Of a stretch of 5,047 nt of DNA, positions 56 through 5,047 are shown in pieces (position 1 is the stretch's first letter; the number at the start of each line of letters is the position of its first letter). A program made the translations under genes and the position numbers. The stretch is from positions 1 to 5,047 of IMG/VR virus record IMGVR_UViG_3300045988_060092; one strand, given 5' to 3'. Source of the stretch: a virus. The notes beneath the pieces were generated by a model. That model searched no databases. It saw only the letters and a list, made by a program, of their open reading frames with translations, and was not told the origin of the DNA.

Positions 56-166
56 GCGAAGGAATACAGTTGCAAACCAACGCTGGAACTCTTCAATATT
101 TACGGCTTCTTTGCAAAGTGCACAAGAATTAGTCTTTCTATCAAAAACAGCATAAATAGTCTTCAT
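1..166 (-). CDS. 5' part of a 97-aa junction-spanning ORF (hypothetical protein; positional analogue of the small ORF downstream of the replication gene in gokushoviruses). Start ATG 166-164; continues across the circular junction into 4992..4865
   Basis: My own translation of the minus strand gives an open frame from ATG (rc of cat 164-166) to the window start: MKTIYAVFDRKTNSCALCKEAVNIEEFQRWFATVFLRDSSMFALYPQDY... The ATG overlaps the VP4 stop TGA (163-165) as ATGA, a classic translational-coupling arrangement. Codon usage is NNT-rich like VP1 and VP4. In the joined circle the frame is continuous with 4865..4992. Confidence 0.6.
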   Translation of the reverse strand, partial: MKTIYAVFDRKTNSCALCKEAVNIEEFQRWFATVFLRDSSMFALYPQDYDIYSLC

Positions 167-1065
167 TTACAATCTCCTTCAATCGGTCGAATCAATTTCT
201 TGGCAATTTCAAGTTGGTGTTCTTCTTTCTGAAGAAGACGGGTGACCGATTCTTTTTTAACCGTCTTCTTTCTCCGTGCCTTAAGAATATCAAACCTTTC
301 TGCATCTGTCAAATGCAAATAATCGTCATAATAAGCTGGAGGACGGGTAATCATACCATCCGGTAAAACAACCTTATCATAATTGTAGACATCATTAAAA
401 TACTTAACTATCCAATCGTGCGCAATACCGGGCTTTCGAGACATCGTAATAAATTCAGGGGTACGACCGTGATAATGAGCCGGGGCATCCTTACCATACA
501 CTTTTTTAGTTACGTATCGCGCTACGTAAGCGCAGCTCTTAAAAGTAACATTACCAATGGTATGGAAACCAAAAGGCCAAAGACTAAATAAAAAATCAGA
601 GATATAAAGCGGCCCGTAAGGCGTCTGTCTAAGTAACTGACGGTCATCAGAAAAATCATAATTAAATATAATAAGATGATAGTGAGGCCGTAAATTTTTA
701 TCACCATATTCACCACAAGCAAAAAAACGAATCTTAATATTCTGATAAGACAAAGCCTTGCGTAACCGTTTTAAGAAAAGCTGAACATCACGAACACTGA
801 CAGAGCCGGAAGCAGGAAGGTGCGCATCATCGAAAGTCAAAGTTAAAAAACAATTATGGTCATGTAAAGAAGCCTCATGCACACATCTGACTGCCCATTG
901 CCGAGAATGTGCGAGACGACAGCCAATACATTTTCCACAAGGAATAGTGCATGGTTCCGCACCGCGAGCCGGGGAGCTCGCAGGGGAACCAAACACAATA
1001 CGGTAGCCCGACTTAGAGCTAGCATCAGGAACACGCCAGCAGTCGATCGGATGATAACAAGCCAT
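163..1065 (-). CDS. VP4: Replication initiation protein (rolling-circle HUH endonuclease), Microviridae VP4 / phiX174 gpA family, 300 aa
   Basis: ORF track protein. It contains rolling-circle Rep motif 1 FLTLTFDD (res 73-80), motif 2 HYHLIIF (HUH, res 128-134, nt about 664-684) and motif 3 YVARYVTKK with two Tyr four residues apart (Y180/Y184, nt about 514-528), as in phiX174 gpA. There is an N-terminal Cys cluster CTIPCGKCIGC (res 39-49). ATG at 1065-1063 lies 2 nt after the TAA of the upstream small ORF. Confidence 0.9.
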   Translation of the reverse strand: MACYHPIDCWRVPDASSKSGYRIVFGSPASSPARGAEPCTIPCGKCIGCRLAHSRQWAVRCVHEASLHDHNCFLTLTFDDAHLPASGSVSVRDVQLFLKRLRKALSYQNIKIRFFACGEYGDKNLRPHYHLIIFNYDFSDDRQLLRQTPYGPLYISDFLFSLWPFGFHTIGNVTFKSCAYVARYVTKKVYGKDAPAHYHGRTPEFITMSRKPGIAHDWIVKYFNDVYNYDKVVLPDGMITRPPAYYDDYLHLTDAERFDILKARRKKTVKKESVTRLLQKEEHQLEIAKKLIRPIEGDCK

Positions 1066-1067
1066 AA

Positions 1068-1184
1068 TTAAATACGGAAGCCGCCGCGCATAGGGCGTGC
1101 GCGAAGGTTACGTTTTTTAATATTTACGGCGCCTTTAGTAAAAATCTTGCGAGACTTCTTCTTAGACAGTTTACGACGTTTCAT
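1068..1184 (-). CDS. Small highly basic protein, 38 aa (putative DNA-binding/packaging protein, gokushovirus ORF8 / phiX174 J-like)
   Basis: Not in the ORF track (shorter than 60 aa). My translation from ATG (rc of cat 1182-1184) gives MKRRKLSKKKSRKIFTKGAVNIKKRNLRARPMRGGFRI*, with stop TAA at 1068-1070. About 42 percent of residues are K/R. A strong SD AAAGGAG (rc of 1193-1199) sits 8 nt upstream. Its TAA is 2 nt before the VP4 ATG. Confidence 0.75.
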   Translation of the reverse strand: MKRRKLSKKKSRKIFTKGAVNIKKRNLRARPMRGGFRI

Positions 1185-1205
1185 ATAAAACACTCCTTTG
1201 GTTAG

Positions 1206-1306
1206 CCTGGACTTTATCCAGGACAATTTACCTGGAACTTTATCCAGGACAATTTACCTGGACTTTATCCAGGACAATTTACCTGGACTTTATCCAGGAC
1301 AATTCA
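1206..1306. repeat. Four tandem copies of a 25/26-bp unit (cctggactttatccaggacaattta), each containing the palindrome CCTGGA-n5-TCCAGG
   Basis: Seen in sequence. Units are 1206-1230, 1231-1256 (one extra a), 1257-1281 and 1282-1306 (final tta changed to tca). Each unit holds a 6-bp inverted repeat, cctgga/tccagg. The array fills the VP2 / basic-protein intergenic region. The VP2 stop codon (TGA, rc of 1304-1306) lies inside the variant copy. Confidence 0.9.
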
Positions 1307-2182
1307 CTTAAGCGCACTAAAAGGCATCCAGCGCAACAATTCACCCATTGTAGTACCAAATCTATGTGCATAACCGGTCTTGATATCCTGGACAGACTGT
1401 TCCTGTTCATTAGCAAGTTTAATCCGAATAGAATCTTCGAGATTACGCTGAGTAGAAGCGTCAAGATTAGCCGCACTAGCCAAATTTTCAGCAGTACCAG
1501 CTGCCAAATTATCAATCTCATAAGGCGTCAATTGCTGGAGCCTAGCCAGTTCACCGTAAGACTTCGCGGCAAGCGCAGAAGCGGCACCAGCTTGAGCAAG
1601 ATTAGCCTCAGAGCGTGTACCAAGTTCGGCGACCTGCGCATCAGTAATACGCTTACTATTTTCGATTTCCTGCAAAATTTTATCAATATTTGCATCAGCA
1701 ACTTTAACCTGCATCTTAAAAACTTCAGTCTGTTGTTTAGCTTGAGCAGTAAGAGCGAAAATATTATCCGCTTTGAGCGGTATAAGGGTAGTTTCACCCT
1801 GCACCTGTGCGGTCTGAGCCGACTTAAGTTTAGTATCTTGTAATACATTACTAGCCTCGGCGCGAGTTTTTTCAACTGTAGCCTTGATAGCTTCATTTTG
1901 CATCTGGAGATTTTTTGCCTGCTGAGCGGCCATATATCCGGAAGTCGCGGCAGTACCTAAATTTTCATAGCTACCACCAGAAGAAGCACCAAAAGTACTA
2001 TTACCACCATTAGCCGAAAGGATAGGATTGAGACCAGCTGCGCGGAGGTCAGCGACTTCAATCTGATGTTGTTTGTAAAGCTGGTCATGAGCAAGTTCAT
2101 AATTAGCATTAAACTGTTTTCTCTGCTGGCGGTTAGCAATAAGACCACCAGCAAGACCAGCAATAGCACCAAACAAACTCAT
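1304..2182 (-). CDS. VP2: Putative VP2 (DNA pilot / minor capsid protein), 292 aa
   Basis: ORF track protein. It sits immediately downstream of VP1, as in gokushoviruses. It has a Gly/Ala-rich N-terminus (MSLFGAIAGLAGGLIANRQQRK) followed by a long Ala/Gln/Glu/Lys-rich region that looks like a coiled coil, which is typical of microvirus pilot proteins. The SD GAGGTGA (rc of 2187-2193) is 4 nt upstream of ATG 2182. The VP1 TAA (2196-2198) is 13 nt upstream. Confidence 0.65.
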   Translation of the reverse strand: MSLFGAIAGLAGGLIANRQQRKQFNANYELAHDQLYKQHQIEVADLRAAGLNPILSANGGNSTFGASSGGSYENLGTAATSGYMAAQQAKNLQMQNEAIKATVEKTRAEASNVLQDTKLKSAQTAQVQGETTLIPLKADNIFALTAQAKQQTEVFKMQVKVADANIDKILQEIENSKRITDAQVAELGTRSEANLAQAGAASALAAKSYGELARLQQLTPYEIDNLAAGTAENLASAANLDASTQRNLEDSIRIKLANEQEQSVQDIKTGYAHRFGTTMGELLRWMPFSALK

Positions 2183-2195
2183 AAAATCACCTCAC

Positions 2196-3860
2196 TTAGA
2201 AGTGGTCAACAAGACCAGGGACACCGTAAACCGGCATCGGGCGTGCGCATTTCATCTCAATGTACGAATCAATGATAAACTGAGGTTCATTCTGTACTGC
2301 AAGAATACGAGATACTGGCGGATTATCTTCAATAAACTGAGCAGAAAGCGTGGGAAGATTATCAAACTTTTGAGAAAGATGCCAAACATCAAGAGACTGG
2401 GGGTCCGTAGAACGTAACTTACCGGTAATCATAGAAGGGAAATAACGATATTCCGAGTATCTTTCCTGGTAACCAAATACATCATCATCAGCAGCTGTAC
2501 CCTGTGCATAGATTTCCTTATTCAAAATCGCCTGCTCGCCAAGATGCGCAAGAACCGGCCAGTAAAAATCAAAGCGTGTACGGCGGCTGAACATACGAGG
2601 AATGCCCTGCTGATAGGTAAGATCAGCACGGACATTCAAAAGACCAATGATAATACCATGTTCCACAAAGGATTTAGTGAATCCATGCTTAGCGGATGTC
2701 GAGGACGCAAGACCATATGCGGCAAGGTTGCCCTGCGGCGTCTCTGCGCCAGTAGCACCAGTCGCGGAATTTTGGACAACAGGATTGAAAATAACAGGGC
2801 TTTCCGAGCCGCCAAGGTATTCCGGACGCTGGAGACGAGAATCAGGGGAAACAACACCAAAGTGCGAGCGAAGGATTTCAGTATAACGGGTACCACCACG
2901 AGCATCACGTTCGAAGAGTTTCTGCAACTGGAAAGCCTGACGCAGGGAATTAATAGTAGCAGCTGTTACAGAAGATAAATCAGCATAAACATGAGAATTA
3001 TCACCAAACCCAAGTAATTTGCCACTATCATCGTTACCAGTTCCCAAAAAAGTACCAGACGCACCAATAGCAGTTGATTCGTCAGTAGGATAACCTAACG
3101 AACCACGTTTTAAACTCTGACGACCAACGAGATACCCAACGGAAGAACCGTCTGTGAAAGCAACGGCACCATCACTCTTAACCGGAGCATTACCGGAAAG
3201 AGGGAGCTCTACGCCGGGGCCTTTCTGAGGCCAAGGAAGAGCGCTGGTGAAATAATCGTGACGCTTACCACGCCTGAGAAGCCTGTGCGAACCGGTAAAA
3301 CCAGCATCACCAACACCGACATCATCCAAACCAGTAGCGGATTTAATTTCAGCAAAGGAAGAGAGATTAATAGGATTCTGGAGATTTTCATCTCTGAACC
3401 ATTCATTCCAGATAAGGGCATACGCTCTCGCGGCTAATTCGTTAGCCTTGATACCTTTAACGCCAGTCGGAAGGCCAAAATAATCTTCAAGGGAACCAAC
3501 TGGAAAACCTTTATCAGCCGGGGCAGTAGTCTGAGGTACAAGATAATCAGTAGGCGCACCAGGATAATCCTGCTGGCCGTTAAACTGTTCCCAATGCTTC
3601 CAAAGTAAGCGATATGGTACAAAGAAATAAAAAGTATCAACAAACAGATTATCCATAGTCGGTACTATGGGAGTAGAAAGACGAGCTAAGAAATTAAACT
3701 TAACCTTAAAGGAATCGCCTGGAAGGACTTCATCCACAAGAAACGGGACAAGGAAGCCGCTATCAAAGGTACTTTTCCAGCCGTGGGACCTATCAAACAC
3801 AGACCGAGAGATTTGAGCTCGCGGAATCTGCGAGAATAAATGCTTCATGACTGATTTCAT
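2196..3860 (-). CDS. VP1: Major capsid protein VP1 (Microviridae F-protein family, gokushovirus type), 554 aa
   Basis: ORF track protein. Its size and sequence blocks are those I recognise in gokushovirus VP1: FSQIP...SVFDRSHG near the N-terminus, GKRHDYFTS, RDARGGTRY, LQRPEYLGG, GYQERYSEYRY and KCARPMPVY. The SD AAAGGA is 8 nt upstream of ATG 3860-3858. Confidence 0.92.
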   Translation of the reverse strand: MKSVMKHLFSQIPRAQISRSVFDRSHGWKSTFDSGFLVPFLVDEVLPGDSFKVKFNFLARLSTPIVPTMDNLFVDTFYFFVPYRLLWKHWEQFNGQQDYPGAPTDYLVPQTTAPADKGFPVGSLEDYFGLPTGVKGIKANELAARAYALIWNEWFRDENLQNPINLSSFAEIKSATGLDDVGVGDAGFTGSHRLLRRGKRHDYFTSALPWPQKGPGVELPLSGNAPVKSDGAVAFTDGSSVGYLVGRQSLKRGSLGYPTDESTAIGASGTFLGTGNDDSGKLLGFGDNSHVYADLSSVTAATINSLRQAFQLQKLFERDARGGTRYTEILRSHFGVVSPDSRLQRPEYLGGSESPVIFNPVVQNSATGATGAETPQGNLAAYGLASSTSAKHGFTKSFVEHGIIIGLLNVRADLTYQQGIPRMFSRRTRFDFYWPVLAHLGEQAILNKEIYAQGTAADDDVFGYQERYSEYRYFPSMITGKLRSTDPQSLDVWHLSQKFDNLPTLSAQFIEDNPPVSRILAVQNEPQFIIDSYIEMKCARPMPVYGVPGLVDHF

Positions 3861-3964
3861 GTTATCAATCCTTTCTGAACGACCGCCCTAAGGCTTCGCC
3901 AACAGGCTGTATCGTTCAAAAAAATAGAATGAGTGTGAAAAATGAGCCGCTTAACGGTGTCACT

Positions 3965-3998
3965 CCGGCCAATTACATCAAGTAGTGTAATTGGCCGG
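3965..3998. other. Perfect hairpin: 13-bp stem ccggccaattaca / tgtaattggccgg with an 8-nt loop, in the VP3-VP1 intergenic region
   Basis: Seen in sequence: 3965-3977 is the exact reverse complement of 3986-3998, with loop tcaagtag. It lies 23 nt past the VP3 stop on the coding strand. No U-tract follows it on the coding strand. Confidence 0.85.
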
Positions 3999-4021
3999 TC
4001 GGCGCTTACCGTTAGCAAACA

Positions 4022-4465
4022 TCAGTTTACTTCTTTACCGGAACCTTCAACAGGTCCGGAAGGTACTTCAGGAGTACCGTCAACAGGTTTGTCAATAATT
4101 CCAAGCCTAATTGCTTCAGCATAATCATCACTTCCTTCCTTGAGAGACTGAACAAACTCGAAATAGGCAGCAGGGTCGTTTCCGAATCGTTCACGGATTT
4201 TACTTGAAAGGTGACTAAATGCGTTCTCTGCCGCCACTATGACATTCTGAGCTTCCTGGTAGGAAGGCATATCAGAAAAATCACCAAATTGAGGAACACG
4301 AGACACCGGTACAGTAGGATCCACAAGTACACCAGTAGTCTCAAAACGCGAAATAATACAGTTTATGTCTGCATCATCTTTGAAAGACTGAAGAGTCTGA
4401 GAAGCCTGGTCAAACTTAATACCAGGCTTATCGCCGGTAACAGAATAACGAGATTTAAATTTCAT
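4022..4465 (-). CDS. VP3: Putative internal scaffolding protein VP3, 147 aa (start taken at ATG 4465-4463, not the upstream GTG at 4552)
   Basis: The ORF track frame is 4022..4552. The track's first codon is GTG (rc of cac 4550-4552) with no SD. The in-frame ATG at 4465-4463 (MKFKSRYSVTGDKPGIKFDQ...) is preceded by GGAAAGGA with 5 nt spacing. The product is acidic and about 16 kDa, a size that fits gokushovirus VP3. The call is by size and position only. Confidence 0.6.
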   Translation of the reverse strand: MKFKSRYSVTGDKPGIKFDQASQTLQSFKDDADINCIISRFETTGVLVDPTVPVSRVPQFGDFSDMPSYQEAQNVIVAAENAFSHLSSKIRERFGNDPAAYFEFVQSLKEGSDDYAEAIRLGIIDKPVDGTPEVPSGPVEGSGKEVN

Positions 4466-4667
4466 GATTTTCCTTTCCGCGCGGATCCGCGCTACAAGTA
4501 TCTTCAAATAGACTAGTAGGTTTAAGGTTACTACTAATAAAATAACCACCACAATTTAAGCAAACAGAGCTATGGTCGTCAACATGGTACAAAACGCACT
4601 GACAATACTCACAACGATCGATACCGTCAAATACAAAGCGCTTAAAAGCAGAAGGTACTTTAGACAT
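4455..4667 (-). CDS. Small C4 zinc-ribbon protein, 70 aa (hypothetical; motif C-x2-C-x13-C-x2-C)
   Basis: ORF track protein MSKVPSAFKRFVFDGIDRCEYCQCVLYHVDDHSSVCLNCGG.... The cysteines are C19, C22, C36 and C39. A true ATG lies at 4667-4665. Codon usage is NNT-rich like the capsid genes. Its 3' end overlaps the VP3 start by 11 nt and contains the VP3 SD. A GGTGGTGA element lies 9-17 nt upstream. Confidence 0.6.
   Translation of the reverse strand: MSKVPSAFKRFVFDGIDRCEYCQCVLYHVDDHSSVCLNCGGYFISSNLKPTSLFEDTCSADPRGKENHEI
4479..4492. promoter_or_regulatory. Perfect 14-bp GC-rich palindrome GCGCGGATCCGCGC, 2 nt upstream (coding strand) of the VP3 Shine-Dalgarno
   Basis: Seen in sequence. It can form a 5-bp GC stem with a GATC tetraloop in the mRNA, immediately 5' of GGAAAGGA-n5-ATG of VP3. 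It lies inside the C-terminal codons of the zinc-ribbon ORF. Confidence 0.5.
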
Positions 4668-4694
4668 TTCATCACATCACCACCTGGCTATAAT

Positions 4695-4772
4695 GGGGGG
4701 AACATGCCGCAAGACATAAGAGAACTTAAAAAACAAACAGTCAGAAGCAAGAAAAAAGCGGCATTTCCCCCC
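4695..4772. promoter_or_regulatory. Long-range interrupted inverted repeat (ggggggaacatgccgc ... gcggcatttcccccc; 15 bp with a 1-nt bulge, 47-nt A-rich spacer) in the non-coding region between the terminator and the zinc-ribbon ORF start; candidate promoter/origin/packaging cis element
   Basis: Seen in sequence. Arm 4695-4710 versus arm 4758-4772: the reverse complement of the second arm differs from the first only by one extra c. The region 4668-4864 has no credible coding frame, since the only ORF through it uses a GTG start, rare codons, and contains the terminator. Confidence 0.55.
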
Positions 4773-4792
4773 ATACCCCCGAGGGCTAATAA

Positions 4793-4832
4793 GGGAGAAA
4801 GAAAAACCGCTAACGTCAGCAAACGCTAGCGG
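4793..4832 (-). terminator. Rho-independent (intrinsic) terminator on the coding strand
   Basis: On the minus strand the region reads CCGCUAGCG-uuugcuga-CGUUAGCGG, a 9-bp stem with one G.U pair and an 8-nt loop, followed directly by UUUUUCUUUCUCCC (rc of 4793-4806). It starts about 32 nt after the stop of the junction-spanning ORF. Read on the plus strand it has no T-tract. Confidence 0.8.
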
Positions 4833-4864
4833 CCTGCCGAGGAGAACGGCAAAGAATAGAAAAA

Positions 4865-5047
4865 TCACTCGCCCGGCTGGGCAGAAGTCGGGCGCGGGAT
4901 TTTAAAAATAGAGAAAAGCTCGTCAACCGAACAAATAAGAGACGGCGGAAAAGAATTAGGGTCATCAACGGTCATATTTTCATCATTAAAAGAGCAAAGA
5001 GAATAAATATCGTAATCCTGAGGATAGAGAGCGAACATCGAAGAATC
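4865..5047 (-). CDS. 3' part of the same 97-aa junction-spanning ORF (stop TGA at 4867-4865); 4993-5047 duplicates 1-55
   Basis: The minus-strand frame is open from the window end down to tca (TGA) at 4865-4867, encoding ...DSSMFALYPQDYDIYSLCSFNDENMTVDDPNSFPPSLFCSVDELFSIFKIPRPTSAQPGE*. It is in frame with 1..166 when the circle is closed. An intrinsic terminator starts about 32 nt downstream. Confidence 0.6.
   Translation of the reverse strand, partial: DSSMFALYPQDYDIYSLCSFNDENMTVDDPNSFPPSLICSVDELFSIFKIPRPTSAQPGE
4993..5047. repeat. Second copy of the 55-nt terminal redundancy (same as 1-55)
   Basis: Exact identity to positions 1-55. Confidence 0.95.

Follow-up and report, generated by a model that had tools for sequence, protein, structure and literature searches.

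The window analyzed here, 5,047 nt in all, holds the genome of a gokushovirus, a complete microvirus and gut ssDNA phage, in circularly permuted form. Bases 1 to 55 are repeated exactly at 4993 to 5047, and by this direct terminal repeat the genome is circular, of 4,992 nt; the overlap also suggests a de Bruijn assembly with k=55. Every gene lies on the minus strand, the viral and mRNA sense being the reverse complement of the window. The locus is organized as follows.

163 to 1065, minus strand: Rep gene (PF23343)
1068 to 1184, minus strand: ORF for a 38-residue, Lys/Arg-rich basic protein (MKRRKLSKKKSRK...RGGFRI), with its ATG at 1182 to 1184, kept in all relatives
1193 to 1198, minus strand: Shine-Dalgarno (SD) sequence AAGGAG of the basic-protein gene
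1199 to 1303, minus strand: insertion of 105 nt comprising repeat units 1 to 4 and a 7-nt tail, CTAACCA, delimited by blastn breaks and junction comparison
1304 to 1306, minus strand: VP2 stop codon TGA, immediately 5′ of the insertion
1304 to 2182, minus strand: VP2 gene (DNA pilot or minor capsid protein, 292 residues), from the ORF and the annotation of relatives
2196 to 3860, minus strand: major capsid gene VP1 (Phage_F, E = 2e-181)
3861 to 4021: VP3-VP1 intergenic region
3965 to 3998, minus strand: hairpin with a perfect 13-bp stem
4022 to 4465, minus strand: scaffold gene VP3 (Chlamy_scaf)
4455 to 4667, minus strand: conserved Cys-rich, zinc-ribbon-like ORF of 70 residues, with an 11-nt overlap with the VP3 start
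4668 to 4864: long non-coding stretch

The remaining gene, ORF5 (Phage_ORF5, 97 residues in the related contig L155), spans the window ends. The nearest GenBank records, from uncultured gut and vaginal Microviridae, are 78 to 83% identical and carry the same annotated genes. The Cys-rich ORF is also called in four related sequences (L155, L159, L160, and L162), and its only Pfam match is subthreshold and FtrD-like (E = 0.003). The basic protein has no Pfam match; it is called as a 38-residue gene in L155 and L159 too and is probably a J/VP8-like DNA-binding protein. Just past ORF5, a terminator-like hairpin with a 14-bp stem and a following T-run is found on the minus strand (4804 to 4835). 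The best sigma-70-like promoter match on that strand, TTGACG-16-TAAAAT (10/12), is located inside the 3′ end of ORF5 (4899 to 4926). The Rep operon may end at these two elements.

An array of tandem repeats separates the VP2 stop codon from the ribosome-binding site of the basic-protein gene. TRF reported a period of 25 at 1206 to 1304 (3.9 copies, 97% matches, score 189), and a repeat search returned four head-to-tail copies at spacings of 26, 25, and 25 nt. Read in the sense direction, VP2 ends in ...CTTAAG TGA, followed by two copies of ATTGTCCTGGATAAAGTCCAGGTAA, then ATTGTCCTGGATAAAGTTCCAGGTAA, ATTGTCCTGGATAAAGTCCAGG, CTAACCA, AAGGAG, TGTTTTAT, and ATG. The parts of the insertion are as follows.

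1279 to 1303, minus strand: unit 1, ATTGTCCTGGATAAAGTCCAGGTAA, 25 nt, hairpin at 1282 to 1298
1254 to 1278, minus strand: unit 2, of the same sequence as unit 1, hairpin at 1257 to 1273
1228 to 1253, minus strand: unit 3, ATTGTCCTGGATAAAGTTCCAGGTAA, 26 nt owing to an additional loop T (AAAGTT), hairpin at 1231 to 1248
1206 to 1227, minus strand: unit 4, ATTGTCCTGGATAAAGTCCAGG, 22 nt, hairpin at 1206 to 1222
1199 to 1205, minus strand: tail C-TAA-CCA, 3′ of unit 4

Each unit contains a 6-bp-stem hairpin, CCTGGA-N5-TCCAGG, with N6 in unit 3 as a result of its 1-nt insertion, and the hairpins are set apart by an identical 8-nt linker. The two CCWGG sites of each unit add up to eight within approximately 93 nt (1206 to 1298). 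The first-pass annotation had described this architecture correctly: the four tandem hairpins, the paired CCWGG sites, the odd unit with one extra nucleotide, and the location in an ssDNA phage genome, with VP2 on one side and the basic-protein gene on the other, are all confirmed in the sequence. The array far exceeds chance, as the best TRF score obtained in 300 dinucleotide shuffles was 56, and the genome contains 15 perfect 6-bp hairpins versus 4.95 ± 2.4 in the shuffles. It is not a CRISPR array, as had also been noted, since the linker is invariant and unique spacers are lacking. The window holds 17 CCWGG sites versus 6.3 expected. The nine outside the array are about as many as expected, with neither depletion nor excess, so that a CCWGG bias driven by Dcm or EcoRII was rejected. 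Comparisons made by eye with a dif/XerCD site, a LexA box, sigma-54, and CRP-type motifs yielded no match.

Folding predictions, which the earlier annotation had proposed as a check, returned a structured element in both nucleic acids. As RNA, the 151-nt array region has a predicted energy of −57.2 kcal/mol (z = −8.7 versus shuffles); as viral-sense ssDNA it reaches −24.5 kcal/mol (z = −6.2) in the form of four separate hairpins. The array alone is predicted at −49.4 kcal/mol as a nested inter-unit helix in RNA, or at −34.4 kcal/mol as four local hairpins. In these models the array is a self-contained module, consisting of four 6-bp hairpins or, alternatively, of a single long helix between units. 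The energy required to open the SD-AUG region is 5.6 to 6.3 kcal/mol with the array and 5.5 to 6.0 kcal/mol after its deletion in silico, ruling out that the array sequesters the SD sequence. The view that the hairpins are not terminators was upheld: they are followed by UAAAUUGU or CUAACCA and by no U-tract, and a scan of positions 1185 to 1310 called no terminator-like site. A search of the whole window against Rfam (E ≤ 1) gave no covariance-model match.

We compared the VP2/basic-protein junction with those of 27 syntenic relatives, comprising 3 GenBank and 20 IMG/VR relatives (VP2 68 to 93% identical at the amino acid level) and the 4 closest genomes, taken from a collection of 15 billion proteins (VP2 93 to 95% amino acid identity, whole genome 86 to 91% nucleotide identity). 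The array was not found in any of the 27, over a range of VP2 identities from 68 to 95%. The distance from the VP2 stop codon to the basic-protein start codon is 10 to 24 nt in all of them, versus 119 nt in the window. A typical relative reads TGA-AAGGAGTGTTTTAT-ATG, and in one of them (L138) the downstream AAGGAGTGTTTTAT is identical to that of the window. The SD sequence begins 0 to 10 nt past the VP2 stop in nearly all relatives and abuts it in most. Alignments by blastn with the four closest genomes break exactly at both ends of the segment at 1199 to 1303. By sequence comparison, the array is thus a precise 105-nt insertion between the VP2 stop codon and the SD sequence of the basic-protein gene.

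The same comparison contradicts the proposal that a single t-to-c variant in the last unit created the VP2 stop codon. In most repeat-less relatives VP2 ends in ...CTTAAGTGA or ...CTTAAATGA (AAGTGA or AAATGA), and in MG945228 in ...TTAAAATAG. Judged from these endings, the TGA at 1304 to 1306 is ancestral; moreover, the consensus unit would place TAA, also a stop codon, at this position.

Absence of the repeat from close syntenic relatives, which the first-pass annotation had itself named as evidence against a function, is what we found in 27 of 27. This removes the readings that require a conserved cis element, namely, a complementary-strand origin, Rep iterons, or a packaging signal, all of which had been suggested for the array and are left unsupported. 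A role in RNA stability or translation, suggested at the same time, survives as a strain-specific possibility but not as a family-wide feature.

A better candidate for a family-wide cis element is the hairpin at 3965 to 3998, approximately 2.7 kb from the array. Its stem and loop, CCGGCCAATTACA-CTACTTGA-TGTAATTGGCCGG, have a z-score of −5.1 when folded as ssDNA. Relatives preserve the hairpin almost unchanged, and the stem difference seen in OP549870 is compensatory. Its loop and 3′ arm, CTACTTGATGTAAT, contain ACTTGAT, which is common to the viral-strand origin of phiX174, AACTTG/ATATTAAT (AACTTG/ATAT; rep_origin annotated at 4306). Among 87 gokushovirus genomes, (A)CTTGAT(G/A)T lies in a hairpin loop above a stem of at least 8 bp in 51 or more, and the stem sequences vary from clade to clade. 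On the strength of this motif, the hairpin is probably the Rep nick site; we did not find it described in the literature searched. The distance between this candidate nick site and the array argues against an iteron or origin role of the latter. The likeness of the array hairpin sequence CTGGAT to the nick motif CTTGAT, at five of six positions, was judged insignificant. In one relative, L003 (MG945426.1; 5,637 nt), the VP3-VP1 intergenic region occurs twice, at approximately 2057 to 2260 and 2780 to 2985, origin-like hairpin included, and the two copies flank an extra segment of approximately 900 nt.

The Rep iterons of geminiviruses and plasmids are direct repeats of approximately 20 nt that flank the nick-site hairpin and covary with Rep. 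The array resembles them in consisting of direct repeats in a Rep-encoding circular ssDNA replicon. It differs in its distance from the candidate nick hairpin and in the lack of repeats in relatives whose Rep is nearly the same. Complementary-strand origins of the Bullavirinae include the hairpin of the phiX174 PriA (n′) site and the primase origin hairpins of G4 (PMC9865509). Like these, the array places hairpins in intergenic viral ssDNA; however, the phiX174 and G4 hairpins are single-copy and conserved within their lineages, whereas the array is iterated, its stems measure only 6 bp, and no relative has it.

A function at the DNA level, as an extra complementary-strand priming site or a protein-binding array (serving as iterons, as a decoy for titration, or in packaging), is improbable in our estimation. 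The hairpins predicted in viral-sense ssDNA, the 6-5-6 palindromes, whose operator-like geometry would suit a dimeric protein, their regular spacing of 25 to 26 nt, and the cluster of eight Dcm/EcoRII-type sites are consistent with such a function. However, relatives L160 to L162 lack the repeats although their Rep region is approximately 89 to 91% identical to that of the window at the nucleotide level, and iterons would be expected beside the conserved ACTTGAT hairpin, which shows stem covariation, rather than 2.7 kb away. In addition, stems of 6 bp have little stability in ssDNA, CCWGG sites outside the array show neither avoidance nor enrichment, and none of 108 related genomes has a comparable array.

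Two features of slippage-type tandem repeats are found here, namely, head-to-tail copies of high identity and presence or absence among close relatives. We consider that the array is probably a young, lineage-specific tandem amplification by slippage, and that it is a neutral or slightly costly passenger rather than a selected element. It probably arose when strands mispaired, by slippage or through hairpins, in the course of rolling-circle ssDNA replication. The unit borders, T(G/A)A, resemble a stop codon, and TAA appears again in the tail; the border TAA/TGA and the tail C-TAA-CCA share only 2 to 4 nt of homology. The founder was probably the stop codon together with a hairpin, duplicated in situ, as far as this history can be inferred.

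Smaller duplications occur at the same places in related genomes. Three relatives carry TGAAA three times at the array junction, overlapping the VP2 stop and the SD sequence (L139, 2384 to 2398; L144, 2369 to 2383; L149, 2396 to 2410), and OP549870.1 (L001) has a 16-nt sequence, ATCGAACCGGATTGAA, twice between the basic-protein gene and Rep (2668 to 2699). From these sequences, the VP2/basic-protein and basic-protein/Rep junctions seem prone to slippage. TRF analysis of 108 gokushovirus loci (470 kb) gave a single other tandem repeat with a score above 100, in L213. That locus, from a distant gokushovirus, contains a perfect tandem duplication of 54 nt (two copies, 1881 to 1990), of in-frame length and inside overlapping ORFs. 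None of the other loci in this set of 108 has a multi-copy hairpin array, and in the literature we searched, tandem hairpin arrays are not described for Microviridae. This rarity in gokushoviruses indicates that the array is not routine noise, a point against the passenger reading.

No external source of the unit with matching flanks was found among GenBank phages, plasmids, E. coli genomes, IMG/VR, JGI metagenomes, or the GTDB matches listed, and nothing significant came from blastn searches of phage and plasmid sequences and of E. coli genomes. The exact 17-nt hairpin, CCTGGATAAAGTCCAGG, has 8 matches in IMG/VR and at least 120 in GTDB, and none of those listed is tandem or has matching flanks. 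Of the GTDB matches listed, approximately 22 come from a single multi-copy element in an Acidobacteriota MAG and approximately 30 from a conserved Pseudomonas locus; the remainder fit the approximately 70 expected by chance according to our own estimate. The Acidobacteriota element, in MAG CBDEGM01/OZ250158, is longer than the hairpin and contains it in at least 22 copies (loci L012, L016, L024, L032-L035, L042, L047, L061, L066, L068, L074, L082, and L093-L129). Its conserved flanks (…GGTTGCGGCCTT / GTAAAGGCGCGC…) are unrelated to the phage unit.

Matches to longer or degenerate probes were likewise coincidental or within coding sequence, and none was tandem or had matching flanks. A 22-mer including the 5′ flank had one JGI match, within a nucleotidyltransferase ORF; an 18-mer across the unit junction had two isolated matches in large contigs; and a loop-degenerate pattern had four homologous matches in one ORF of an unrelated phage group. 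An origin from elsewhere in the phage genome was rejected as well, since the best local alignment of the unit was no better than those of shuffled queries (p about 0.27). The genome contains no second copy of the unit.

Beyond the window, the array was found only in three ENA contigs (L132, L133, and L155), which are 100% identical to the window from end to end (1.9 to 4.9 kb) and thus represent a single genotype. In 90%-identity clusters, VP1 and VP2 of the window are singletons. Neither copy-number variants nor single-unit intermediates were found in the one genotype sampled. The perfectly periodic run measures 68 nt by manual count, which is less than k + 25 = 80; the four copies are thus best read as a lower bound.

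We regard an assembly or amplification artifact, or a misassembled copy number, as very unlikely. Short-read de Bruijn assembly can collapse or misjoin tandem repeats, L133 ends inside the array, and the identical contigs may share underlying reads. However, the array and the 1-nt variant of unit 3 recur under differently named pipelines and samples, the variant being present in L132 and L155 and the contigs comprising SPAdes-style NODE contigs and a “scaffold” from ERZ28578579. A 68-nt periodic run is also resolvable at k=55, and the flanks run seamlessly into ancestral sequence on both sides. An artifact would seldom yield clean head-to-tail units of 25 nt whose limits coincide exactly with a stop codon and an SD sequence.

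If the array is a passenger amplified by slippage, it is presumably dispensable for the conserved parts of the life cycle, i.e., replication origins and packaging, and its only likely physiological effect would be at the mRNA level. By lengthening the stop-to-start gap from approximately 14 to 119 nt, the insertion would break the tight juxtaposition of stop codon and SD sequence and, with it, a probable translational coupling. The stem-loop block begins 5 nt past the VP2 stop codon, where it could hinder 3′-to-5′ exonucleases or terminating ribosomes or stabilize the upstream mRNA.

REP elements and the intercistronic hairpins of phiX174 provide analogies for such stabilization of upstream mRNA and hindrance of terminating ribosomes. 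REP/BIME sequences are clustered extragenic palindromes between cistrons or past stop codons, whose mRNA hairpins can stabilize upstream mRNA and modulate translation. The array is similar in presenting clustered palindromes just past a stop codon, between cistrons. REPs are imperfect palindromes of approximately 35 to 40 nt, dispersed by the hundreds in the host chromosome, often in alternating orientation, and mobilized by RAYT transposases. Unlike REP/BIME or MITEs, the array is one head-to-tail run in a phage genome, its units measure 25 nt, and our searches listed no dispersed copies with matching flanks.

We rate as rather unlikely the possibility that the array is adaptive at the RNA level, as an element of the polycistronic mRNA comparable to REP/BIME or to the phiX174 intercistronic hairpins. 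Such an element would shield the VP3-VP1-VP2 mRNA from 3′ exonucleases or form an RNase III-type site through the inter-unit helix; it would uncouple or lower the expression of the basic protein and Rep, thereby retuning the ratio of structural to replication proteins. The very stable predicted RNA fold and the position of the array, 5 nt past a stop codon, where the structural genes give way to the basic-protein and Rep genes, are consistent with this. The SD sequence and its 14-nt context are intact and equally accessible with the array, as would be expected if downstream translation had to be preserved. On the other hand, 27 of 27 relatives do without the array, its occurrence in one genotype yields no selection signal, identical units allow no covariation, and a smaller amount of the basic DNA-binding protein is not obviously advantageous.

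Transcription initiation within the array is still harder to credit. Its unit junctions, TTGTCC-N15/16-TAAATT, could be viewed as a weak promoter array for the basic-protein and Rep genes, as each hexamer matches the sigma-70 consensus at four of six positions by eye, with a spacer of 15 nt, or 16 nt across unit 3. However, our promoter scan, based on a sigma-70 consensus that may not be that of the host, did not call these junctions, whose 8/12 matches fall below the threshold and whose spacing is short. Relatives express the same genes without the array.

Laboratory work on phiX174 bears on the expected fate of such a sequence. According to a review (PMC6855363), phiX174 tolerates inserts of up to 163 bp, with a fitness cost. 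The stability of palindromic inserts in this phage is reported to fall as the number and the identity of the repeats increase (Russell & Muller 1984 and Williams & Muller 1987, as summarized in PMC6855363). The phiX174 inserts (PMC6855363) are similar to the array in that repeated short palindromes form a noncoding junction insert of approximately 100 nt, within the packaging limit, in a small ssDNA microvirus; they differ in being engineered, and unstable when the repeats are more numerous or identical, whereas the array is natural and is the consensus of a wild genotype. This instability implies that the array is either very young or, less likely, kept by selection. By analogy with phiX174, its presence as the consensus in several assemblies could instead reflect positive selection, which would also fit an adaptive RNA element. 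In our judgment, it is more likely that the array is a passenger and will prove to be evolutionarily short-lived.

There is, in our view, a slight chance that the array is a newly evolved, positively selected cis module that persists in spite of the instability of repeated palindromes in microviruses, for example, an additional priming site, a CCWGG or operator-like decoy, or a segment for mRNA processing that shifts the balance between structural and replication gene expression. As a decoy, its CCWGG-bearing hairpins or operator-like palindromes would titrate a host nucleic-acid-binding or defense protein. If this were true, the array would offer a natural snapshot of the birth of a regulatory element de novo in a 5-kb ssDNA phage.

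For the gokushoviruses as a family, our analysis corrects an overinterpretation, as the array does not serve these phages as a conserved origin, a set of iterons, or a packaging signal. It represents a natural case in which a streamlined ssDNA phage gains approximately 2% of extra noncoding DNA by tandem amplification. The insertion took place at a junction where all relatives hold two genes tightly abutted, and laboratory work on phiX174 predicts instability for a sequence of this type. If its maintenance were shown, the array would become a tractable case for the de novo birth of a regulatory element.
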